This document shows, one piece after another, positions 4,422-58,807 of a stretch of DNA of 62,197 nt. The notes under the pieces are model-generated. The model was not told the origin of the DNA, did not search any database, and worked only from the letters and a program-made list of their open reading frames with translations. Numbering within the stretch: position 1 is the first letter of the stretch; each line of letters begins with the position of its first letter. Both the position numbers and the translations under genes were made by a program. Source of the stretch: an uncultured Bdellovibrionales bacterium (GTDB lineage Bacteria > Bdellovibrionota_C > UBA2361 > CAZKXU01); contig CAZKXU010000004.1 of NCBI GenBank assembly GCA_964556665.1, positions 1-62,197 on the forward strand, in the 5' to 3' direction.

Positions 4422-6511
4422 GGCTAGCTTCTCTCTACCTCTGCAATTTCAGGCAGCATGCATTAACAGAGATTCAATTTGAATCAGGTATCACTGGAAT
4501 ATTCGGGCCAAACGGCGCTGGCAAAAGCAGTTTGGTTGAGGCAATAGCTTTTGCGCTCTATGGCGTCCAGGCAATACGAGGGAATCTTGCTGACTTAAAG
4601 AGACGAGGCTGTAGCGCACGTGATCCATTCGAAGTAAGACTCGTCTTTGAACATGACAACATTGTTTACAGAGTCGAACGCGGCATTAGTGACGGCAAAC
4701 TATTCATCGCTGGAGCTGACAAGCCGATTACCAGTAATAACCGTGAAACTACAGCGGCAATCGAAAGATTATTACGGCTTAACTACGATGAATTTATAGC
4801 TTCATATTATACAGAACAGAAAGGATTACAGTTCCTAAGCGGTCAAAAAGGTGCGACAGAACGTGAAAAATTTATTATGCGGATGATCGGCTATGACCGT
4901 CTCGAAAAGATTCAGGAGTTATTGAGGGAGGATCGTAAATCTAAGCGTAGTGAGTTGCAAGGCATCGAGGCAGGCTTAGGAACTAGACAGGAACTTGAGA
5001 GCTGCCTAAGAGTAGAGATGGAGCATCTAGCATTGGCTGAGGAAAGTTATAAGAACTCAAGCAAAGTATTGAAAAATGCTGACTTAGAGGTATTAAGATT
5101 AAAAGGCGAATATGACAAACTTGAATCACAAAAACTAAAGTTCGATAAGCTTCTGGCAGACATTGAGAGGATAACAATTTTAACGCAGCAGCAGGGCAAG
5201 AGGCGAGAATCTATTCTGCAGGATCTTGATGAGATGCCCAGCCTAGATGCGTTAGAGGAGCTAATCTCTCAGAGCCGTTTAGCGCTCTTAAAGCTGCGTA
5301 CAGAGATACAGCAGCTTGAGACTGAGACACAAGCAGAGCAGTCCTTATGGAGAGAGCGAACGGTTAAAATCGAAGCGGAGCTTGCGACTCTAAGTGAGAA
5401 AAATCATGAACTAACTGAACGCGAGAGAAACTATACGGCATTAAAAGAGAACGCTCCTTGTCCTACCTGCGGTAAGGAATTAGGCGCAGAGTTTCATGAT
5501 GTGAAGGGGCATTTAAGAGTAGAGAGAGAGAGTCTAGCCGAACATATATCTATGCTCTACTCGGAGCTTAAAGTTCTGAGCACTGAACCTGAGATGCTAA
5601 TAGAGAAGAAAGTAAAACTTTCATCGGCAAAGAAATCGCTCGCCGTTCAAGAGTGTGAAAATGCGAGCTTAATTGAACGTCGAGCGAAGCTTGAAGGGGT
5701 AAGACTCCTGCAAGCTGAACTTTCTCGTATTGATGACGAGCAGATAGAGTTAAATAAAAAAAGAGCCGCGCTTGATGATGAGCTTTCTGAGCTTTCATTT
5801 AAGGCGGATCTATACACTAGAACAAAAGCCGGATATGAGGCTGCCATGCGTTTATTGGAGGTCTCACGACTTCAAAATACAAGAGCAGAAGGTGAGCATG
5901 AGATGTACCGCTCTTTAGTGGAAAGAGCGCGGGCAACCTTAGAACAGTATGATCAAAGACGTGCTTCATTACAAAGTCTAAAGACGGAGCTGGTATTACT
6001 TGAGGAAGGGGATGCCTTACTCACTAACTTTAGACGGGACCTTAACTCTACCCTAAGACCCCGGCTTGCTGAACTCTCTGGAGAGTTCCTGGCGGAGCTA
6101 ACTGATGGTCGTTATAACACAGTCGAAGTACAGCCGGATTTTACTCCAACAGTTGTTGAAGATGGGGATCCGAAAGCAATTATTAGTGGAGGTGAGGAGG
6201 ATATTTTGAACCTTTGCGTGCGGCTAGGCTTATCTACATTGGTATCCGAGCGAGCTGGGCACACCGTTTCGCTTCTGGTCCTAGATGAAGTTTTTGGCTC
6301 ACTAGATGAGTTTAGACGTGCTAACGTTCTGGTATTATTAGAGCAGTTGCGGAAACGTTTTGAGCAGATCCTCATTATTACCCATATGGATGATATTCGA
6401 GAGAGCATCCAGAACGCTATCTACGTTGATTACAATCACTCTTTAGATCAGGCGGTCGTAAGAAAGGTTGAGGCTGATTTTCTTATAGAAGGCAGAGTAG
6501 TCAATCTGTAA
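4418..6511 (+). CDS. sbcC: SbcC/Rad50-family SMC ATPase
   Basis: Walker A GPNGAGKS, coiled coils, zinc hook CPTCG, signature ISGGEE, Walker B LVLDEVFGSLD, ITH. Confidence 0.88.
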   Translation: MRLASLYLCNFRQHALTEIQFESGITGIFGPNGAGKSSLVEAIAFALYGVQAIRGNLADLKRRGCSARDPFEVRLVFEHDNIVYRVERGISDGKLFIAGADKPITSNNRETTAAIERLLRLNYDEFIASYYTEQKGLQFLSGQKGATEREKFIMRMIGYDRLEKIQELLREDRKSKRSELQGIEAGLGTRQELESCLRVEMEHLALAEESYKNSSKVLKNADLEVLRLKGEYDKLESQKLKFDKLLADIERITILTQQQGKRRESILQDLDEMPSLDALEELISQSRLALLKLRTEIQQLETETQAEQSLWRERTVKIEAELATLSEKNHELTERERNYTALKENAPCPTCGKELGAEFHDVKGHLRVERESLAEHISMLYSELKVLSTEPEMLIEKKVKLSSAKKSLAVQECENASLIERRAKLEGVRLLQAELSRIDDEQIELNKKRAALDDELSELSFKADLYTRTKAGYEAAMRLLEVSRLQNTRAEGEHEMYRSLVERARATLEQYDQRRASLQSLKTELVLLEEGDALLTNFRRDLNSTLRPRLAELSGEFLAELTDGRYNTVEVQPDFTPTVVEDGDPKAIISGGEEDILNLCVRLGLSTLVSERAGHTVSLLVLDEVFGSLDEFRRANVLVLLEQLRKRFEQILIITHMDDIRESIQNAIYVDYNHSLDQAVVRKVEADFLIEGRVVNL

Positions 6512-12210: not shown

Positions 12211-13002
12211 ATGTCAATAATGGAAGAGGAAGTAGTAAAAGTCGAACAGCATGGATCTACCTTAGAGCTAACGATCAATCGCCCAAAGGCACTAAATGCA
12301 CTTAACTTAGATGTCTTAGTAGCACTGTCTCAGGCATTTGAGCGGGCAGGGCGTGATAATCAACTTAGAGCAGTAATAATTACCGGTGCTGGAGAGAAAG
12401 CTTTTGTTGCCGGTGCTGATATAGCAGGCATGGTAGATCTGGGTCCGCGACCGATAGCAGACTATATAGAACTTGGACAGCGCGTAATGCGCCAAATAGA
12501 GAAATTTCAGTTACCGGTAATCGCAGCAGTAAATGGTTTTGCGCTAGGCGGCGGGCTTGAGCTGGCTCTTGCATGTGATATGGTAGTAGCTGCTAGGAAT
12601 GCAAAGCTTGGGACCCCTGAGGTAAGCCTTGCCATTATTCCCGGATTCGGTGGTACGCAACGTTTAATACAACGGTGTGGAATAGGGCAGGCACGCAGGC
12701 TTGTTTTAACAGGTGAGCTAATTGATGCAGATGAGGCTGCTAGGATCGGGGTGATAGAGAAAGTTGTTGAGTCCGCCGATCTATTAACCCAGGCACGTGC
12801 TTGGGGAGATATGGTTAGCAAAAAGGGACCTTTAGCAGTAATGGAAGGGAAGAGTGTTATTGCACGCTCACAGGAGCAGAGCCTCCTTAGCGGCCTACAG
12901 TTAGAGGTTGAGGCGTTTTTAAAGCTCTTCGGTACCTCTGATCGAGAGGAGGGGATGCGAGCTTTTATGCAGAAGCGTGAGGCTAAGTTTGTTGGGAAGT
13001 GA
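12211..13002 (+). CDS. Enoyl-CoA hydratase (crotonase family)
   Basis: KAFVAGADI, GFALGGGLELALACD, PEVSLAIIPGFGGTQRL. Confidence 0.9.
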   Translation: MSIMEEEVVKVEQHGSTLELTINRPKALNALNLDVLVALSQAFERAGRDNQLRAVIITGAGEKAFVAGADIAGMVDLGPRPIADYIELGQRVMRQIEKFQLPVIAAVNGFALGGGLELALACDMVVAARNAKLGTPEVSLAIIPGFGGTQRLIQRCGIGQARRLVLTGELIDADEAARIGVIEKVVESADLLTQARAWGDMVSKKGPLAVMEGKSVIARSQEQSLLSGLQLEVEAFLKLFGTSDREEGMRAFMQKREAKFVGK

Positions 13003-13015
13003 GCTGCGGTTCTTT

Positions 13016-13091
13016 ACTGGAACCTCGGACATATTGCCAACAACTTATCCCCATTCAGCACGTTTGCGGGCAAGATGCCCGCGGTCCCAGT
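13016..13091. repeat. REP doublet (REPIN-like)
   Basis: Degenerate left arm 13016-13041, 24-nt spacer, right arm GCGGGCAAGATGCCCGCGGTCCCAGT 13066-13091. Confidence 0.8.
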
Positions 13092-13121
13092 TAGCAACAG
13101 CTTCTTTACTACAGTATAACT

Positions 13122-14292: not shown

Positions 14293-14368
14293 ACTGGGAC
14301 CGCGGGCTTCTAGCCCGCAACGCAGCTCCTTCAGGCTCGTTTGCGGGCTAGAAGCCCGCGCTCCCAGT
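14293..14368. repeat. REP doublet (REPIN-like)
   Basis: ACTGGGACCGCGGGCTTCTAGCCCGC 14293-14318, 24-nt spacer, inverted copy 14343-14368. Confidence 0.92.
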
Positions 14369-14420
14369 AGAAAGATTAGTATACAGCGTACTAGCAACTT
14401 AGATTTTAAATAGTATCAAA

Positions 14421-16920: not shown

Positions 16921-19221
16921 CTATCTAAATGACTGTGTCTCGCCGCGCGGCTGGAACTTTAGATCACTTAGCTCTCTTGTTCCAAGCGACTCATCCTGAT
17001 GTAAATCGATCTCATCATCGACGTTAAACACTTTAGCCCCTACCAGTCCAAAGAAGGTAAATGCGTATTTAAAATAGACCTGCGTCTTAGGTGCCACAAT
17101 CTGCATGGAGAGGATATCCCCTGTGTCCTCCCTGCATGCTCCAAGATGATCCCCATCATGGTTACGTAGATGAGCATCTACTGCGCTTTCACCCACTTCT
17201 AGAGTTATCCCTATACCTGAACGGCCATTTGGATAATGACAGATTGTCACCTTCTTCTCCTCTACTACTGCTGTTGCTGTTGGAGGAACCGCTGTTGCAG
17301 TTGGTGGGATAGGGGTGTTTGTTGGTCTAGGAGTCGCTGTCGGAGGGACCGGCGTAGCAGTAGCCTCTTTGCCGCCACTCTTGCCACTTTTACCATCCTT
17401 TCCGCTTTTGCCACTATTATCATCCCCTTTCACGCTGGTACTGGTTGGAGGCGGCACGGGCGTATTCGTTGGCTTCGCAGTTGCAGTTGGTGGAATAGGG
17501 GTGTTTGTTGGTTTGGGTGTAGCTGTTGGAGGGAGCGGCGTAGCAGTAGGCGGGACTGTTGTAGGTGTCGCTGTTAGAGGTACGCATGGTCCATAATAGT
17601 CGTTCGGATGATTCGGAATATGACCACTAACCCCACTAGTAGCTATCTCAAGAGTATTCCCGAGATCTGAACTCCCTGTTCTATGACAGATTACGACCTT
17701 GGCAGCAGGCGCAAATCGCACCTTATCCGGATCGAAATACCCTAAATCCGGACTCCCATGTGGCCCTCCGCTCTTACCACTCTTGCCACTTTTCCCATCA
17801 TCTCCTCCATCCTTTCCACTCTTACCATCATCATTGCCTCCACCAGAGTTCCCACTTTTACCGCTCTTACCACTCTTCCCGCTTTTTCCACTCTTGCCAC
17901 TTTTGCCATCATCTTCCTCCCATGGCTTGCGGTAACTCCCTTCATCTCCGATAAAGGTAACGGTATTCTCACCAACAATATTTAGTAAAAACTGCCCTGG
18001 CCTCTCTCCATTGTTTACAAAATTCCCTACCGGAATCGGTCCTGCCTCAATTGTCCCGACATATACTGTTACTTTTCCGTCAGCAGGGCTCGGATTAACT
18101 ACCAACTTTGCAGTATCCTCGATCGTTAGCTTACTAAAATAGTACCCAAATGCTGTAGTCGTAAGTGTCAAAGTCTGTCCACTCTTAATTTTCACCTCTC
18201 CCCAACAACGGTTGGCAGCTGCATTTCCGGTGACAGTTAAGGTCGTGCTTGTGGATATCTCTATGTTCCCCTGATCAGATGGACAGTAAACACTCCAACT
18301 ATCAAATACAGGCAGATCAGGCACTTCGCAGCTTGAGCCGCTACAGCTCTCACCTACAGTTGGACAGCCCTGTATAAAATCATCACAAACTTTTGACTGT
18401 GCTAGTATTTTTAATCTATCCTTACTATTTACCTCGCCGTAAACTGTACTCTTTTTATCAAGAGTTAAAGAAAGATTCGATGCTGCATTACCATATGGCC
18501 GTCTGCTTTGCTGAGTGTAAGGACCTACGGCTGAGTCATAGGAATCATGTATAACATTTGAAAATGTTAGATCATCAACCCCGATCATGGCTCCCATAGA
18601 GTCATATACAAGCTCACTCATGATATAAGCTGTAAGCTGCATGCCGGTGTTAAGATCGGTCATCGCATCAACTCGAAAAACCGGATAAAAATCTGTAGTC
18701 GGAGGCTGCGCTGGAGGGTTGCCATAATCTGCTGCTGCTGTCACAGGAAGAACGTCTACTAATGTGAGGCGCACAAACCCTGGGAAATCTTGTATTTTGA
18801 AATCCGCTGCTGCATCAAATGAGGCACCAGTGCTGGTATTAGAGGTAACAGGGAATGCAGCCGTAGCAAGATCAACAGTGTCTGTAAGAATAGCAGAGTT
18901 ATTACTGTCCTTAATCTTCACCTTTGTGGGCACTGTGAACTTTGTATCGTTAGCACCCACAGAAGGGGCTGTTCTTTCGAAGTTGTTATAAAACTTAGCT
19001 GCTGAAAAGGGGGATACTAAGTTTTTTGAATTTGAGCGCAGCCAATTAAGAACCTGCGAAAGCCCGTTTTCAGAAAGATAGATTCTAGTCGCCTTTTTTT
19101 CACCGAAAAGGGACATGCGTAAATTAGAGGAGGAGAAACTTAAGGCGCTAGCGATGATCACTGAAGCTAACAAGAGAAAGATCAGGTATCCTAGAAGAGT
19201 ATTCCCGTTTTTTTTCATCAT
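16921..19221 (-). CDS. PilX/TadG-like pilus-associated protein with low-complexity insertion
   Basis: N-terminal pilin-like TM helix, last gene of a prepilin cluster, beta-rich C-terminal half, GKS repeats, PT-rich repeats, two ICH...H..H..C mini-domains. Confidence 0.65.
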   Translation of the reverse strand: MMKKNGNTLLGYLIFLLLASVIIASALSFSSSNLRMSLFGEKKATRIYLSENGLSQVLNWLRSNSKNLVSPFSAAKFYNNFERTAPSVGANDTKFTVPTKVKIKDSNNSAILTDTVDLATAAFPVTSNTSTGASFDAAADFKIQDFPGFVRLTLVDVLPVTAAADYGNPPAQPPTTDFYPVFRVDAMTDLNTGMQLTAYIMSELVYDSMGAMIGVDDLTFSNVIHDSYDSAVGPYTQQSRRPYGNAASNLSLTLDKKSTVYGEVNSKDRLKILAQSKVCDDFIQGCPTVGESCSGSSCEVPDLPVFDSWSVYCPSDQGNIEISTSTTLTVTGNAAANRCWGEVKIKSGQTLTLTTTAFGYYFSKLTIEDTAKLVVNPSPADGKVTVYVGTIEAGPIPVGNFVNNGERPGQFLLNIVGENTVTFIGDEGSYRKPWEEDDGKSGKSGKSGKSGKSGKSGNSGGGNDDGKSGKDGGDDGKSGKSGKSGGPHGSPDLGYFDPDKVRFAPAAKVVICHRTGSSDLGNTLEIATSGVSGHIPNHPNDYYGPCVPLTATPTTVPPTATPLPPTATPKPTNTPIPPTATAKPTNTPVPPPTSTSVKGDDNSGKSGKDGKSGKSGGKEATATPVPPTATPRPTNTPIPPTATAVPPTATAVVEEKKVTICHYPNGRSGIGITLEVGESAVDAHLRNHDGDHLGACREDTGDILSMQIVAPKTQVYFKYAFTFFGLVGAKVFNVDDEIDLHQDESLGTRELSDLKFQPRGETQSFR

Positions 19222-27658: not shown

Positions 27659-30268
27659 ATGGATATTAATCGTTTTACCCAGAAAAGCCAGGAAGCAGTA
27701 CAGTCAGCGCAGAGTCTTGCGATTAAGTTAGGGCATGCCGAAGTAGATGTAGAACATCTATTCAGCGCGCTTCTAGATCAGGAGAACGGGGTTATTCCGC
27801 GAATAATGGCGCGTATAGATATTCCGCTAGAGCCTGTACAAAGCGAGGTGCAGTCAGAGCTTCGTAGGCGGCCTAGTATTAGCGGTCCTGGAGCTGAGGC
27901 AGGAAAAGTCTTTGTAACACAAAGACTCAGTAAGCTTTTTGTTAAGGCTGAAGAGGAAGCAAAGCGTCTTAAAGATGAATATGTCTCCGTTGAGCACTTA
28001 CTCCTTGCAATGTTCGAGGATGGAGGTGCGATAGCAAAAATATTTAAGACCTTCTCACTATCAAAAGACCGATTCCTCAAAGCACTTACTGAGATAAGGG
28101 GTTCGCAACGGGTGCAGAGTGCTAATCCGGAAGACACGTATGAAGCATTAGAGCGTTACGGAAGAGATCTAGTAAAAGAGGCTAACCGAGGTAAGGGCGA
28201 TCCGGTAATTGGAAGAGACGAGGAGATTCGTAGAGTAATAAGAATATTATCAAGAAAGACTAAGAATAATCCCGTACTGATCGGTGAGCCTGGAGTCGGA
28301 AAAACCGCTATTGTAGAGGGGTTGGCGCAGCGCATTGTGCGTGGGGATGTTCCTGAAGGATTAAAGGATAAAACCATATTTGCACTTGATATGGGTGCAC
28401 TAGTGGCAGGTGCAAAGTATCGTGGTGAATTTGAGGAGCGCTTAAAGGCAGTATTGCAGGAGGTCAAAAAGTCGGAGGGGCGTATTCTGCTTTTTATAGA
28501 CGAGCTCCATACAATTGTTGGTGCAGGAAAGACAGAAGGGGCGATGGATGCAGGTAATATGTTAAAGCCGATGCTCGCCCGTGGAGAGCTGCACTGTATC
28601 GGCGCCACTACACTAGATGAATATAGAAAGTATATCGAAAAAGATGCGGCTTTAGAGAGACGATTTCAGCCAGTAACTGTAGATCAACCGAATGTCGAAG
28701 ACACTATCTCTATTCTGCGCGGAATAAAAGAACGGTTTGAGGTACACCACGGGGTAAAAATTCAGGATAACGCCTTAGTAGCCGCTGCCACTTTATCACA
28801 TCGGTATATCTCCGATCGTTTCCTTCCAGATAAGGCGATCGATCTTATGGATGAAGCATGTGCTACGATTCGCACCGAGATCGACTCAATGCCTGCGGAG
28901 TTGGATCAAGTTACCCGTCGATCTATGCAGTTAGAGATTGAAGAAGCTGCGCTTAAGAAAGAGAAGGACGAAGGCTCTAAAAAAAGATTGCAGGAATTAG
29001 CTAAAGAGCTGGCTGAGCTGAGGGATCGATCAACAGCGATGCGCGTACAGTGGGATGCTGAGAAGCAGGCAATTCACAAAGTACAAGGGCTGCGAGGCCA
29101 GATAGAGACTCTGCGTAGGGAGATCGAGAAAGCTGAGCGGAGTTATGATCTTAACAAGGCGGCTGAACTAAAGCACGGCACATTACCGGCTTTGGAGAAG
29201 GAGTTAAAGAAAGAGGAGCAGATTCTTACCAAGAAGCAGGGAGCCCATCGCTTACTTCGTGAAGAGGTAACTGAGGATGAGATTGCTCAGATAGTGGCAC
29301 GCTGGACCGGTATTCCTGTAACACGATTAGTAGAAGGAGAGAAAGAGAAACTGCTTAAGTTAGAGGAGATACTCCATCACCGTGTAATTGGTCAGGACGA
29401 AGCGGTTTCGCTTGTATCTGATGCTGTGATACGCGCACGGGCCGGCATTAAAGATCCGAAGCGTCCAATCGGAAGCTTTATATTTTTGGGTCCGACCGGC
29501 GTAGGGAAAACAGAGCTTGCCAGGACATTAGCCGAAACACTTTTTGACAGTGAGGCTAACATGGTGCGCATTGATATGAGTGAGTATATGGAGAAGCACT
29601 CAGTTGCACGGCTAATCGGAGCGCCTCCAGGGTATGTCGGATATGAGGAGGGCGGACAATTAACCGAAGCGGTGCGTCGCAAACCATACTCGGTAGTATT
29701 GTTTGATGAGATTGAAAAAGCTCATCATGATGTTTTTAATGTACTGCTCCAGGTACTTGATGATGGCAGGATTACGGACTCTCAGGGGCGTACTGTAGAT
29801 TTTAAGAATACCGTAATCATCATGACATCTAATATCGGGTCTCCTCATCTGTTAGAAGGTGTTAATTCACAAGGTGAGATAGAAAACAGCGCGCGTGAAG
29901 CCGTGATGAAAGAGCTGCGCAGCAACTTTAGACCTGAGTTTTTGAATCGAATTGATGAGATCATTCTCTTTAAGCCGTTACAGCTAGAGGAGATTAAGAG
30001 AATAGTTGATTTGCAGCTCGATGAACTACGTGCACGGCTTAAAGATCGTAATATTCGGTTTGAAATAAGTGATGAAGCTAAAGATCATATAGCACGCTCT
30101 GCTTATGATCCGATTTTCGGCGCGCGTCCATTAAAGCGCTATCTGCAGCGGGAGCTTGAAACCAAGATAGGGAAAGCGCTGATCGCTAACCGCATCGGTG
30201 AAGGGTCAGTAATCAAAATAGGGTTTGCAAACAATGATCTTGAAATTGAGCAGATGGCGGTGGTCTGA
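27659..30268 (+). CDS. clpB: ATP-dependent disaggregase ClpB
   Basis: Two AAA+ modules ([16 protein letters not shown]), middle coiled-coil domain, GARPLKR; 869 aa. Confidence 0.96.
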
Positions 30269-30504
30269 GGAAAACTAGTGGCACGCAACTTTATATATAA
30301 CATATTCCATCTGTCTATTAACTGAGAGTCAGCTAGTAAATTTGCATGCAATTGCTTAAAGAATAGACTTACAATACTCAATTTTCATAAATATGAGCTT
30401 CAAAAGTGTTTGATTCGAATGAGTTTTACAGATTAATACAAAGAAATACATCAGCGCATACGATGCGCCATCCAAAGCCGTATTATTTAAGGAAATTATT
30501 TTAA

Positions 30505-31497
30505 TTACTGACTAGGGACGAATAGATAATTACTATTTGAAGGGACGGAAGGTTTAAAAACTCCACTTGGCCATTTAACCTTAAAATCGCCCTGCAACCA
30601 TCTCTCATAGCATCTACGACATTCCTTACATATTTCGTAAAATTTCGCGATTATTGCGGTCCGTAATTCAGCCACAGATGATAGAACAAATACTTTGCGA
30701 CTCTTCTTCTTTGGTTGATGCGGCTTCAATATAGGCTGCGAGCGTAGTTTGGAGATCCCCATCACAGGCGTAGTTCGTTTTTGCCTTGCTTCCTCTTCAT
30801 TATGTTTAATTTGCTCTATAATTCGGCGATTAATCCCCTCGACATCATTAGGACTTACAGACCCAAAACACTTCATCCAGAGGTTAGGATTGCGGCGTAA
30901 TATCTGAGTTTCTTTATTAGCCTTTCTAATTAGTCGTAATAAAGCCCTATCTTGATCAAACGTTAGTACGTGAGAAGGTGCCTTAGGTATTGTTGGTAAT
31001 CTAATCCAAGGGACAGTCTCCTTGGTTTCAGCTTCTAAATCACCTATCGAGCACTTAAATCCTCGCCAGCTTGAGTATCCCGGAAACACTTCTATGCTAT
31101 CTACTAAGTTATCCAGCGCTGGATTTGAATATAGATAAGCTATCTGTTCTATTGCCTTATCCAAGTCAGCGATAAGTGCTACATGAGGACGTCCTTCCCA
31201 AATATTAAGGTAATCGAGGCCAAGTAGTCTTTTTAAACTATCTGTAATTTTTTTCTGTACCTCACAGTAAAAGTTTGAACATTGGGCCTTATCTTTTGCT
31301 ACTATTATAATGTGTGGATGAGATCCTTCCCAGATATCGTGACATAATATGACTTTGTCATCACGCTGGGTACGAGCTAAACTAGAGGCAATTATCTCCT
31401 TTATAACATCATAAGCCACTAGTGGCAGTGTAGACCTTGCCCTAAAGCATATGTCATAACACCCACCTGATTGTATAAATCGCCGCATCCTAGCCAT
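30505..31497 (-). CDS. REP-associated tyrosine transposase-like (Y1/HUH, IS200/IS605 TnpA superfamily)
   Basis: HUH motif SHPHII, catalytic Tyr in AYLYSNP, FPGYSSW resembling YPWSS; SD AAGGTGA before ATG 31497. Confidence 0.78.
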   Translation of the reverse strand: MARMRRFIQSGGCYDICFRARSTLPLVAYDVIKEIIASSLARTQRDDKVILCHDIWEGSHPHIIIVAKDKAQCSNFYCEVQKKITDSLKRLLGLDYLNIWEGRPHVALIADLDKAIEQIAYLYSNPALDNLVDSIEVFPGYSSWRGFKCSIGDLEAETKETVPWIRLPTIPKAPSHVLTFDQDRALLRLIRKANKETQILRRNPNLWMKCFGSVSPNDVEGINRRIIEQIKHNEEEARQKRTTPVMGISKLRSQPILKPHQPKKKSRKVFVLSSVAELRTAIIAKFYEICKECRRCYERWLQGDFKVKWPSGVFKPSVPSNSNYLFVPSQ

Positions 31498-31750
31498 AGC
31501 TCTCACCTTAATAATAAATCAACTTAATCTCCCTCTTAATTATTCGGGGAAATTGGCTAAAAGTTTCTTCATAAAGTTGCCATGTACCAGTTCGAGGTAA
31601 AGTTGCCATGTACCAGTTCGAGAGGTGTATAAATCGCCGCATCCTAGCCATAGCTCTCACCTTAATAATAAATCAACTTAATCTCCCTCTTAATTATTCG
31701 GGGAAATTGGCTAAAAGTTTCTTCATAAAGTTGCCATGTACCAGTTCGAG
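31472..31750. repeat. 125-bp direct repeat plus three copies of a 25-mer
   Basis: 31472-31596 identical to 31626-31750; TAAAGTTGCCATGTACCAGTTCGAG at 31572, 31598 and 31726. Confidence 0.92.
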
Positions 31751-31773
31751 AGAGATATGATATAGAGCTTAGT

Positions 31774-33711
31774 ATGAGCGCAACTTATCCTATCCCTGCA
31801 CGATTCGCTTCTGATATTGAAATTAACCCTGAACGGTATCAGGCGTTATATCAGCTTTCTATTGACGACCCTCTCAAGTTCTGGGGCGAACTTGCACATA
31901 AGACTCTGCGCTGGAAGAAAGACTGGAGCTCAGTCTTAGAGTGGGACTACCACAACGGACTCATTAAATGGTTTAAAGATGGAAAACTCAATGTTTCAGA
32001 AAATTGCCTAGACCGACATCTGCCCGAAAGAGGGAACAAGACTGCAATCATATGGGAGGGCAACGAACCAGGTGATACACGCACAGTCTCATATTCTGAG
32101 CTGTATAAGCAGGTAGCAAAGGCATCAAATCTGCTAAAGCGTCTTGGTGTTCAAAAAGGAGATAGAGTTGCTATCTATATGCCCATGCTCCCAGAAGTTG
32201 TAGTAGCAATGCTTGCCTGTGCTCGCATAGGAGCCGTACATTCAGTTGTCTTTGCTGGCTTTTCGGCGCAAGCACTACGGGATCGAATCGTAGATTCGCA
32301 ATGCAAGGTTCTGTTTACGGCGAATGAGGGGCTGCGTGGCTCAAAACGAATTGGACTTAAAGAAATTGTTGATGAGGCGCTGATCGGGTCTCCATCAATT
32401 CAACATGTCGTCGTTTACATGCGCACAGATACTGCGACAGTCATGAAAAAGGGGCGCGACCTATGGTGGCACGAGGAGTTAGAACATGAATCTACCGATA
32501 GTATAGCAGAAACAATGGACTCCGAGGACCCGCTTTTTATTCTATACACCTCAGGTAGCACAGGAAAACCCAAAGGCGTACTTCATACCCAAGCTGGCTA
32601 TCTCTTATACGCCAGCGTCACCCATCGTTATGTCTTTGATTACAGAGAGAATGATATCTATTTCTGCGCAGCCGACGTTGGTTGGGTGACTGGTCATTCC
32701 TATATCGTCTATGGACCACTTTCGAACGGAGCGACAACTGTTATGTTTGAATCTATTCCAACCTACCCGCATGCTGGACGGTACTGGGATGTAATCGAAA
32801 GACACAAAGTGAGTATATTCTATACCGCACCTACCGCAATTCGTGCAGTTCAGAAAGATGGGCCGACGCTGCCACGCAATTATGACTTAACTTCACTTAG
32901 AGTGCTTGGCTCTGTCGGCGAACCAATCAATAAAGATGCCTGGCTCTGGTATTATAATGAGGTTGGAAACAGCCAATGTGCTATTGTCGATACATGGTGG
33001 CAAACCGAGACAGGAGGTGTCCTTATCTCGCCCTTGCCTGGTGCCACCCAGACTAAGCCTGGTTCTGCTACGCTGCCATTATTCGGCATCCAGCCCTGCC
33101 TAGTAGATGATAACGGAAAGGAGCTACAAGGTAACAGTGTTAAAGGGAACCTCTGCATCAAGTTTCCTTGGCCTGGACAGATGCGTACTGTTTACGGCGA
33201 TCATCAGCGCTTTATCGAGACATATTTTACCCGTTTTCCAGGGCTATATTTTAGCGGAGATGGTGCAACACGCGACGAGGATGGTTACTATTGGATTACC
33301 GGTCGCGTAGATGATGTGCTGAACGTCGCGGGACATCGTCTTGGAACGGCTGAGATCGAGAGCGCAATTGTAAGCTCAACTGTCGTAGCAGAGGCGGCTG
33401 TAGTAGGAACTCCTCATCCGATCAAAGGGGTAGGAATCTACGCTTTTTGTATTCTAACTGCTGGCGTAACTGATCAGAATATTGCTGAAGGTAAGATTAA
33501 GGATGCTGTACGGCAAGCTATCGGAGCAATTGCGACCCCAGATATTATCCAATTTGTACCTGGACTCCCAAAGACCCGATCCGGCAAGATCATGCGTAGA
33601 ATCCTTCGTAAAATTGCGGAAGGGGAACGCTCCGAGTTTGGCGATATTACCACCTTAGCAGATCCTGGAGTGGTGCAGGCGATAGTTGCTGGGGCTCCTG
33701 CCTACAAATAA
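31774..33711 (+). CDS. acs: Acetyl-CoA synthetase (AMP-forming)
   Basis: YTSGSTGKPKG, DTWWQTETG, PKTRSGKIMRR; 645 aa. Confidence 0.95.
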   Translation: MSATYPIPARFASDIEINPERYQALYQLSIDDPLKFWGELAHKTLRWKKDWSSVLEWDYHNGLIKWFKDGKLNVSENCLDRHLPERGNKTAIIWEGNEPGDTRTVSYSELYKQVAKASNLLKRLGVQKGDRVAIYMPMLPEVVVAMLACARIGAVHSVVFAGFSAQALRDRIVDSQCKVLFTANEGLRGSKRIGLKEIVDEALIGSPSIQHVVVYMRTDTATVMKKGRDLWWHEELEHESTDSIAETMDSEDPLFILYTSGSTGKPKGVLHTQAGYLLYASVTHRYVFDYRENDIYFCAADVGWVTGHSYIVYGPLSNGATTVMFESIPTYPHAGRYWDVIERHKVSIFYTAPTAIRAVQKDGPTLPRNYDLTSLRVLGSVGEPINKDAWLWYYNEVGNSQCAIVDTWWQTETGGVLISPLPGATQTKPGSATLPLFGIQPCLVDDNGKELQGNSVKGNLCIKFPWPGQMRTVYGDHQRFIETYFTRFPGLYFSGDGATRDEDGYYWITGRVDDVLNVAGHRLGTAEIESAIVSSTVVAEAAVVGTPHPIKGVGIYAFCILTAGVTDQNIAEGKIKDAVRQAIGAIATPDIIQFVPGLPKTRSGKIMRRILRKIAEGERSEFGDITTLADPGVVQAIVAGAPAYK

Positions 33712-42090: not shown

Positions 42091-42166
42091 TCTGGGACCG
42101 CGGGCTTCTAGCCCGCATATGAATTTGCAGATGATCCGTAGCGGGCTGGAAGCCCGCGGTCCCAGT
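42091..42166. repeat. REP doublet (REPIN-like)
   Basis: TCTGGGACCGCGGGCTTCTAGCCCGC 42091-42116, 24-nt spacer, inverted arm 42141-42166. Confidence 0.92.
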
Positions 42167-42221
42167 TAGTCGTAATAAGTTATGTTGCAGCGTACTCGTT
42201 TTGATTTTTTTAATCTAAAAA

Positions 42222-55532: not shown

Positions 55533-55988
55533 ATGCCTCAATCAATTCAGGATCTGATAGGATCTGAAAATCATTGCCACGGTTGTGGCCCAAACAATAA
55601 TAAGGGCCTGAGGCTTAAGAGCTATTTTGAAGGGGATGAAACAACTGCTAGTTTCACTCCGGAGCCGCATCAGTGTGCAGGAGCGGTAACAATTGTTAAC
55701 GGCGGCGTGATCGCTTCCTTAATAGATTGTCACTCTGTTAATACCGCGATGGCTTGGGAGTATAAAAACGCTGGGCGCGCAATAGGATCTGAGCCTAAAA
55801 TTTGGTGCGTCACTGCATCCCTCAATGTTACCTATTTAAAGCCCACACCCATAGACAAGAGGCTTGAATTACGCGCTAAGGTTTCAAAAAGAGAGGGACG
55901 TAAAACCTGGATTGAGTGCACACTCTCTGCTGCCGGTGTAGTATGTGCTAAGGGAGAGGTACTCGCAGTTAGGATTGAACGTAGCTAA
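55533..55988 (+). CDS. PaaI-family thioesterase
   Basis: CHGCGPNNNKGL, NGGVIASLIDC, TASLNVTYLKPTP hotdog-fold motifs. Confidence 0.85.
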   Translation: MPQSIQDLIGSENHCHGCGPNNNKGLRLKSYFEGDETTASFTPEPHQCAGAVTIVNGGVIASLIDCHSVNTAMAWEYKNAGRAIGSEPKIWCVTASLNVTYLKPTPIDKRLELRAKVSKREGRKTWIECTLSAAGVVCAKGEVLAVRIERS

Positions 55989-55993
55989 CTCTT

Positions 55994-56071
55994 ACTGGGA
56001 GCACGGGCTTCTAGCCCGCTTGATCTAACTTGCAACAGAGCTCAAGCGGGATGGAAGCCCGCGATCCCAGT
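55994..56071. repeat. REP doublet (REPIN-like)
   Basis: ACTGGGAGCACGGGCTTCTAGCCCGC 55994-56019 and GCGGGATGGAAGCCCGCGATCCCAGT 56046-56071. Confidence 0.9.
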
Positions 56072-56097
56072 AAGGAAAATTTTTATCTGTTATAACA

Positions 56098-56678: not shown

Positions 56679-56809
56679 ATCTACTTTCCGTTATTGTAAC
56701 ACAGTTAGATTTACTACTATTAGGAAACTTTTTGCTTCCTAGAGATAGTTATGCAGAAACAACAAATAATGTGATGTGTTATTAAATGTAATGTTTTTAG
56801 ATAGTTAAC

Positions 56810-56890
56810 ACTGGGACCGCGGGCTTCCAGCCCGCAAACTTATTTAAAGCCATAACCCTGAGCGGGATGGACCATATACTCGGTCCCAGT
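56810..56890. repeat. REP doublet with decayed right arm
   Basis: Consensus left arm 56810-56835; right arm GCGGGATGGACCATATACTCGGTCCCAGT 56862-56890. Confidence 0.82.
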
Positions 56891-58743: not shown

Positions 58744-58772
58744 TTAATTTTTCTTCGGTAAGAATGACACCT

Positions 58773-58807
58773 ACTGGGACCGCGGGCTTCCAGCCCGCCG
58801 TCCCAGT
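58773..58807. repeat. Collapsed REP doublet (single hairpin)
   Basis: ACTGGGACCGCGGGCTTCCAGCCCGC followed directly by CGTCCCAGT. Confidence 0.85.

Follow-up and report, generated by a model that had tools for sequence, protein, structure and literature searches.

The stretch of DNA considered here (the window: 62,197 nt, contig CAZKXU010000004.1 of an uncultured Bdellovibrionales bacterium, forward strand) carries, between clpB (27659-30268, plus strand) and the acetyl-CoA synthetase gene acs (31774-33711, plus strand), a repeat-bounded unit with a single gene on the minus strand. As judged from its sequence and predicted fold, the product of this gene is a distant relative of the RAYT tyrosine nucleases (REP-associated tyrosine transposases; REP, repetitive extragenic palindrome), of the Y1 HUH type. 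The whole unit spans 30273-31752 (minus strand), with a core of approximately 1.33 kb (30273-31598) and a total of approximately 1.48 kb when a duplicated 5′ end is included; its neighbours are unrelated housekeeping genes, and no tnpB is associated with it.

The open reading frame (ORF; 30505-31506, minus strand) can be translated into 333 amino acids (aa) from a GTG at 31506 or into 330 aa from an ATG at 31497, the latter being the likely start because it is preceded by AAGGTGA and because the MPRRRR start of the homologues aligns there. The RAYT-like gene is therefore given as 30505-31497, with its stop codon at 30505-30507, residues 1 to approximately 145 forming the core and residues 146-330 a family-specific extension. 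All the peptide motifs cited in the original prediction of a RAYT-like HUH transposase, namely SHPH, YSNP, FPGYSSW and the C-terminal CKECRRCYERWLQGDFKVKWPSG, are found in it. The small hairpin GCGCAT-ACG-ATGCGC, also reported there, is present at 30454-30468 and, on the gene strand, belongs to a terminator-like structure (30452-30470, minus strand; 8-bp stem, 3-nt loop and T-rich tail) approximately 40 nt past the stop codon. A promoter-like site, TTAAGA-17-TATTAT, lies at 31511-31539 (minus strand) between the start codon and the innermost 5′ repeat (T1, see below); it is a consensus match only, and it is duplicated at 31665-31693. A known RNA in the untranslated regions (UTRs) was considered and ruled out, as no Rfam match is found there at E≤1 and the UTRs evolve like synonymous sites.

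A RAYT-like core with a family-specific extension

The signature motifs of the core are HPH at positions 60-62, WE at 100-101 and Y121-x3-N125-P126, at a spacing of 59 aa from the HUH motif to the tyrosine. In an alignment of 92 homologous sequences H60, H62, W100, Y121 and N125 are invariant and P126 is nearly so (at least 90%), while the middle residue of the HUH motif is proline, alanine, valine or cysteine, and usually proline. In the AlphaFold2 model computed from the same alignment (mean predicted local distance difference test, pLDDT, 94; predicted template modelling score, pTM, 0.90) the HUH motif is on a predicted β-strand and Y121 on the helix formed by residues 112-128.

The window protein has no Pfam match, including none to a Pfam helix-turn-helix (HTH) domain at E<1. 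The NCBIfam model NF047646 (REP_Tyr_transpos) aligns from position 1 to 144 of its 146 with residues 6-142 (E 3.6e-5), and it is matched by 15 of 21 family members, with a best E of 2.8e-12; among the same 21, Pfam Y1_Tnp gives a weak match in four (best E 0.0014) and HTH domains in none. When a profile of the 92 homologues is compared with the sequences of the PDB, the sole match is E. coli TnpA-REP (4er8; E 1e-4, residues 4-140), which is also the best Foldseek match of the model (4er8_A; E 4e-6, TM score 0.75 on the target, root-mean-square deviation 2.8 Å), followed by the TnpA proteins of IS608, IS200 and ISDra2 (2a6m, 2vic, 2f4f, 2xma; IS-type probability approximately 1.0, TM scores 0.5-0.63). 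The end-to-end alignment with NF047646 and the recovery of 4er8 by both profile and fold bear out the original assignment to RAYT-like HUH proteins.

Residues 146-330 are conserved across the family, as exemplified by the PWIRLP, PNAWM and WPPGAFKPP motifs. A separate known domain was considered for this part and rejected: it has no Pfam match and, when modelled alone, it is poorly predicted (pLDDT 78, pTM 0.41 versus 0.90 for the whole protein) and finds no PDB fold at E<1. Given the poor stand-alone model and the lack of a fold match, the C-terminal approximately 190 aa are read as an extension packed against the core. The CKECRRC sequence was also evaluated, and discarded, as a zinc motif: in 25 close members only two of its cysteines (C148 and C151 of alignment A4) never vary, and across the 92 sequences one cysteine is near-invariant, the second and third being replaced in several distant members.

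Inverted terminal repeats in the window and across the family

The original prediction held that the gene is flanked by inverted 21-mers, and these are indeed real. The pattern AACTNGTNNNNNGCAACTTTA matches exactly at 30273 (plus strand) and at 31572, 31598 and 31726 (minus strand), i.e. four times when 0.17 matches are expected, and the exact left-hand 21-mer occurs three times when none is expected. A matrix derived from the flanks of the homologues, with the window's own sites excluded, independently gives these four sites the highest scores in the window, both strands included, with 24.1 bits for three of them and 16.5 bits for the fourth, the best score in shuffled sequences being 14.4 on average and 20.7 at most. 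No further copies of this repeat (CTCTCGAACTGGTACATGGCAACTTTA in the window) are found in the 62 kb.

On the 5′ side of the gene, the innermost repeat, T1 (31572-31598, minus strand; CTCGAACTGGTACATGGCAACTTTA on the gene strand), lies approximately 75-100 nt upstream of the ATG; T2 (31598-31624, minus strand) is a bare repeat with nothing attached, 26 nt outside T1; and T3 (31726-31752, minus strand) adjoins the upstream region of acs. On the 3′ side a single inverted copy, AACTAGTGGCACGCAACTTTA (30273-30293, plus strand), begins 5 nt past the clpB stop and approximately 210 nt downstream of the stop of the RAYT-like gene; this is the 16.5-bit site, and it is degenerate, matching the left copy at 16 of 22 positions. 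T3 is the end of a feature absent from the original prediction, namely a direct and exact duplication of 125 nt with a spacing of 154 nt, in which 31626-31750 (minus strand) repeats 31472-31596, i.e. the first 35 nt of the ORF, the 65-nt 5′ UTR with the promoter-like site, and the repeat. The duplication explains the third left-hand copy, so that the three copies arise partly in this way, and the left side reads, on the gene strand, T3, 65-nt UTR, nt 1-35 of the ORF, C, T2, C, T1, UTR and full ORF. In public freshwater-metagenome runs, which are stored as unitigs at a depth of only 3-6x, one Logan unitig spans 31567-31655, i.e. the junction of T1, T2 and the duplicate, a second equals the 125-nt repeat and a third joins T3 to acs. 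As the unitig across the junction is independent, the arrangement cannot be put down to this assembly alone.

The duplication also creates a chimeric ORF of 50 codons (31508-31660, minus strand), composed of the promoter-like site, ribosome-binding site and first 11 codons of the gene, followed by repeats T2 and T1, which is probably non-functional. Furthermore, the reads of runs X1 and X2, from the same freshwater metagenome, contain at similar depth a second version of the gene (corresponding to window 30862-31447) that has approximately 82% identity to it, every third base accounting for most of the differences, and whose 3′ flank departs from that of the window from 30503 outward; this version could be a paralogue or come from a strain or a sister species.

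Hairpins in the terminal repeats were looked for and rejected: 12 copies fold as single-stranded DNA no better than shuffled sequences (z from -0.8 to +1.0), in contrast to the REP of the window, which folds at -11.1 kcal/mol (z = -3.4).

The same kind of end sequence is a property of the family. When the upstream and downstream flanks were searched blindly for their best inverted pair, a like sequence emerged in most loci, approximately 50-130 nt upstream and 180-310 nt downstream of the gene, with conserved spacing. Its core is CTGGTAC (with the variants CTGGTGC, TTGGTAC and CTAGTAC), followed by 4-6 variable bases and C(A/C)AC(T)TT, leading to a consensus of CTGGTAC-N4-CAACTTT, approximately 25 nt long, in inverted arrays on either side of the gene. 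Matrix hits number 123 in the expected zone and orientation and 43 in all other sequence. Since the repeat core is preserved while the UTRs within the unit diverge as fast as third codon positions, the repeat is a constrained cis element. Loss of the flanking motif in homologues had been proposed as the observation that would speak against the original prediction; the homologues carry it, and the suggestion of a distinct subclass, marked by an end sequence of its own, is supported by the finding of the same motif beside them.

Many loci have 2-7 copies of the repeat on each side. These arrays consist of nested partial copies, which share an outer boundary approximately 8-10 nt outside CTGG and stop at varied inner positions, as can be seen in L041 (4780-5000), L046 (4740-4860), L060 (4800-4970 and 6140-6290), L004 (7170-7335) and L001 (7150-7300), where L numbers denote individual loci. 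In 19 of 37 partial copies the inner end falls directly behind CTGGT or CTGGTAC(A), 5-8 nt into the core. End segments, some including part of the gene, are also duplicated in the window (125/154 nt), L016 (212 nt), L025 (204 nt) and L060 (56 nt). The distribution of the stops suggests a hot spot of breakage and rejoining in the conserved head, which would fit the nick site of an HUH enzyme; the breaks after CTGGT or CTGGTAC(A) may thus mark the place where DNA is cleaved or joined, replication slippage being a possible alternative origin of the nested copies.

Spread of the family, its known relatives and the probable mobility of the unit

A word-indexed search returned 103 clusters of proteins of approximately 330 aa, all annotated as ‘hypothetical’, their named sources being Bdellovibrionota, Oligoflexia or ‘Deltaproteobacteria’ metagenome-assembled genomes (MAGs). 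An exhaustive profile search extended the family to 373 representatives of 50% identity clusters at E≤1e-30 and to 913 at E≤1e-10, nearly all of 320-340 aa. Among GTDB species representatives, 56 loci were found, all in MAGs of the Bdellovibrionota-type group, several of which have 3-4 paralogues; 18 of the genes are cut by contig ends. The window protein has a close relative, P0002, at 88% identity. No plasmid or phage relative was matched by tblastn, and no description of the family was found in the full-text literature on TIRYT, RAYT/TnpAREP and Bdellovibrio; it is also missed by Pfam Y1_Tnp and by the models behind the published surveys of TnpA-Y1 proteins. Within a MAG the paralogues are mostly 66-80% identical in DNA, with one pair at 94% (L021/L022), and the ratio of non-synonymous to synonymous substitution rates (dN/dS) between paralogues, 0.07-0.10, implies that the copies have been kept as working genes.

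Several of the loci bear on whether the unit moves. In the L021/L022 pair, from the same MAG, similarity starts at CCTTGGTGCCACCCAC, approximately 97 nt upstream of the ATG, and ends at a perfect inverted copy, GTGGGTGGCACCAAGG, approximately 210-225 nt past the stop, beyond which the flanks are unrelated; other paralogue pairs likewise end at repeats. No target-site duplication is visible at the boundaries of L021/L022, L004 or the window, the termini of which are not defined to the base. Two short derivatives bounded by CTGGTACYGGGT repeats are present in L004, at approximately 4690-4867 (180 bp) and 12302-12635 (340 bp), the longer of which bears a truncated ORF, a 50-codon remnant of a paralogue, and L050 and L012 contain scattered repeats, singly or in pairs. 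In the window, geneX and clpB are neighbours separated by a spacer of 72 nt devoid of the unit, which lies on the other side of clpB; in L046 a repeat-bounded unit fills this spacer. Taken together, the gene-less short derivatives and the differing insertion sites indicate, at the level of sequence comparison, mobility of the unit, present or past. In two loci further pieces adjoin a unit: in L013 (4941-4976 and 6331-6366) a 5′ UTR-like piece of a second unit follows the 3′ array head to tail, and in L025 (3559-3711) a fragment coding for residues 265-315 is found upstream of the gene, head to tail with a complete unit, which hints at insertion beside existing ends or at a tandem arrangement.

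How the family relates to described systems can be gauged from its features. The names TIRYT, for a RAYT-like gene between terminal inverted repeats (TIRs) that are not REPs, and TIRtron, for the corresponding unit, were introduced in 2013 by Di Nocera, De Gregorio and Rocco (PMC3733652), who also noted that TIRs occur as dimers, as clusters and as dispersed families, and that a genome can have several TIRYT paralogues. The original prediction took as its background that RAYTs, as a rule, lie between their cognate REPs; given that non-REP cases had already been named (PMC3733652, PMC6006769), the rule has known exceptions and the present case is less exceptional than was implied. Indeed, the family answers to the TIRtron description in having a RAYT homologue with TIRs instead of REP hairpins, repeat dimers and clusters, moderately abundant dispersed families, and several divergent paralogues per genome, each with its own TIR, and also in the presence of a C-terminal extension and in its occurrence in the former delta-proteobacteria. 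It differs in escaping detection by Pfam Y1_Tnp and in its end arrays of nested partial copies.

Most TIRYTs have been equated with subclass 2.1, with approximately 238 aa, an HTH-like C-terminus, an NH[VYF]H motif and TIRs that mostly contain GGGGWSAS (Quentin et al. 2018, PMC6006769), within class 2 (TnpA-REP-like), which is defined by Y-x3-NP as opposed to the Y-x3-Q of IS200 (signatures in Table 1 of PMC6006769). Compared with subclass 2.1, the proteins of the family are longer (330 aa versus a median of approximately 238), lack an HTH signal (Bac_DnaA_C, HTH_23, HTH_28) or a C-terminal PDB fold match, carry [SN]H[PAVC]H and YLYANP where subclass 2.1 has NH[VYF]H and YIELNP or Y[IV]HLNP, and are flanked by CTGGTAC..CAACTTT and not by GGGGWSAS. 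Subclass 2.3 of Chromatiales and Alteromonadales (median 325 aa) is similar in length, multicopy occurrence, absence of REPs and long C-terminal tail, but its core insertions of 10 and 55 aa and its NHYH and YVDLNP motifs (PMC6006769) are not found in the family, and the taxon differs; as the core aligns end to end with the 146-position RAYT profile and the motifs diverge, the family does not belong to this subclass.

E. coli TnpA-REP (4er8; NF047646; subclass 2.2), the best profile and fold match to residues 1-145, shares with the family the HUH, W[EQ] and Y-x3-NP motifs, a cognate sequence inverted at the flanks and a low copy number, whereas the family has flanks that are non-palindromic and fold no better than shuffles in place of flanking REPs, an extension of 190 aa integrated with the core, and a low NF047646 score. 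With the TnpA of IS200/IS605 elements (IS608, ISDra2) the family has in common the Y1 HUH fold and a small one-gene unit without visible target-site duplication; it has, however, Y-x3-NP instead of Y-x3-Q, neither subterminal hairpins nor a tnpB partner, inverted repeats as ends, and copies that are divergent (66-94% in nucleotides) and not near-identical. The family is therefore a further branch of the described TIRYT/TIRtron kind and not wholly new, although it fits the features of neither subclass 2.1 nor subclass 2.3.

On these grounds the locus is probably a TIRtron-like unit, in which a predicted Y1 HUH nuclease/transposase of the RAYT lineage (class 2 TnpA-Y1), with a single-domain core and a 190-aa extension, lies between inverted arrays of its cognate repeat. 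The protein would bind the repeat through its tag-like CTGGTAC head, and Tyr121 would nick and rejoin one DNA strand, in or next to CTGGTAC, with the aid of a metal held by His60, His62 and Asn125. Movement or rearrangement of the unit by the protein would be infrequent and leave no target-site duplication, the unit being a long-lived resident and not an aggressive insertion sequence, and the duplicated end segments, the 125-nt duplication of the window included, would be footprints of end processing. A more far-reaching version, which we hold only tentatively, is that of a so far unclassified, phylum-restricted clade of Y1 HUH enzymes, whose 190-aa extension would read hairpin-less, CTGGTAC-tagged ends; the cut would fall after CTGGT or CTGGTAC, the unit and its miniatures would be moved through a previously undescribed form of HUH end recognition, and the nested copies with a common outer end would be its signature.

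Several observations weigh against a TIRtron-like unit. The score of the window protein with NF047646 is 23.7 bits, below the curated cut-off of 80, it does not reach the 23-bit threshold of Pfam PF01797 (Y1_Tnp), and a proline in the middle of the HUH motif is atypical. Near-identical copies within one genome are absent but for the single 94% pair, so that transposition must be rare or ancient, and neither excision nor circle junctions are seen in the public runs at their 3-6x depth. The exact 21-mer has 0 matches in JGI metagenome contigs, which leaves dispersed copies of the window's own repeat undocumented, and the degenerate right-hand repeat means that the window copy may be immobile. 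Finally, we know of no worked-out mechanism by which a strand-specific enzyme of single-stranded DNA would act on inverted, hairpin-less ends.

Some of these same points would suit a domesticated gene in an immobile unit, encoding a sequence-specific DNA-binding or nicking factor with a host function, for which the repeats would be operators or legacy sites. Such a role has been argued for RAYTs in general (PMC5581495), and it agrees with the strong purifying selection, the divergence of the paralogues (mostly 70-80% nucleotide identity), the confinement of the family to one phylum with no plasmid or phage copies by tblastn, the degenerate right-hand repeat of the window and the lack of joints in the reads. 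Nevertheless, we regard it as unlikely, in that the repeat-bounded units duplicate as units, there are short derivatives and solo repeats, the site of insertion varies around a conserved gene pair and many MAG contigs break within the gene.

The REPINs of the window and their probable enzyme

The window also contains at least 12 REP units (with up to 3 mismatches; ACTGGGACCGCGGGCTTCTAGCCCGC), consisting of ACTGGGA(C/G)C and GCGGGCTTCYAGCCCGC and mostly arranged as inverted pairs of approximately 80 nt (REPINs, i.e. paired REPs). Sites of the REP (CTGGGASCGCGGGCTTCYAGCCCGC) are at 14293-14372, 26497-26576, 42091-42170, 24641-24720, 13016-13095, 55988-56074, 56804-56837, 58767-58800 and 167-214. 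As the original prediction had noted, these abundant ACTGGG REPs do not flank the RAYT-like gene, the nearest being at 26497-26576 and 42091-42170. Nevertheless, their CTGGGAC head is like the CTGGTAC repeat core at 6 of 7 positions, in the same outer position, and because of this likeness the REPINs were tested as possible clients of the 330-aa protein.

The exact 25-nt REP is found in at least 120 metagenome loci (L061-L180) of 38 to 76% GC, a 25-mer identical across such different genomes being striking for a REP. There too the REPs are usually in inverted pairs, in which the partner hairpin varies (GCGGCCAGGATGGCCGC, GCGGGCGGGACGCCCGC and others). In the 548 kb of these 120 loci there is no gene of the family; in L141 (476-1116) and L171 (approximately 83-976, plus a minus-strand ORF) there are instead ORFs scoring above the Pfam Y1_Tnp threshold, with the same REP on either side in inverted orientation, i.e. 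in the arrangement of a REPtron. Spanning at least 120 loci and flanking canonical RAYTs, this REP type is part of a widespread superfamily associated with such RAYTs; we take the window REP to resemble the GT(A/G)GGAGCGGGC REPs of pseudomonads. Some peculiarities of these loci are recorded here: the REPs of L141 and L171 run into the called ORF, where they are translated into PGSAG..LPA and GQDGRAPR-like peptides, and L081 has, at 1332-1541, four copies of the REP in the same orientation with a period of 61-62 nt, suggestive of a tandem cluster or, possibly, of a CRISPR-like array.

That the 330-aa protein mobilises the 80-nt REPINs (ACTGGGASC and the GCGGGCTTCYAGCCCGC hairpin), its own flanks being hairpin-less relatives of the REP head, is thus improbable. 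Besides the likeness of the two heads, it could count on the absence of any other HUH...Y-x3-NP ORF from the 62 kb and on one head-plus-hairpin element, with a canonical CTGGTGC head, in L012. However, the same REP recurs across the at least 120 loci without the family and beside the canonical Y1_Tnp genes of L141 and L171, the G that replaces T is at a core position invariable in the repeats of the family, and head-plus-hairpin elements are not enriched in the loci of other carriers. No canonical RAYT is present in the 62 kb, which are a small part of a genome, and the REPINs of the window are most likely the clients of another enzyme, which would be a canonical RAYT encoded elsewhere in the genome. 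Of the two options left by the original prediction, namely that the REPINs use another RAYT or are cross-mobilised, the former is the better reading, as none of the 120 REP loci encodes the family and two have canonical RAYTs. An even more remote alternative, that of a rolling-circle replication initiator (Rep) of an integrated small replicon with the repeats as iterons, has in its favour the resemblance of an HUH enzyme beside direct-repeat arrays to a Rep-iteron layout, and can be set aside because the nearest fold and sequence matches are RAYT and IS200-type TnpA and not Rep, the arrays are on both sides and inverted, the 1.3-kb unit has no other gene and there are no plasmid or phage relatives.

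Apart from these elements, a coding-looking segment of the window (17290-17923) has 9-nt periodic repeats (CCACTCTTG / CCGCTTTTG), with 10 overlapping copies of 36 nt and a 74-nt pair 186 nt apart, which suggests that it encodes a repetitive, low-complexity protein.

RAYT and TIRYT enzymes are widespread, and, to our knowledge, E. coli TnpA-REP is the only one of them studied biochemically, those associated with TIRs having never been assayed. The family of the TIRtron-like unit fills an annotation gap made of hundreds of ‘hypothetical’ protein clusters undetected by Pfam, and it pairs a compact protein, for which the model is confident, with a cognate sequence that is short, hairpin-free and sharply defined, and in which natural footprints point to the place where DNA would be broken and rejoined. 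How a strand-specific HUH enzyme handles inverted, unstructured ends thereby becomes a directly testable question.

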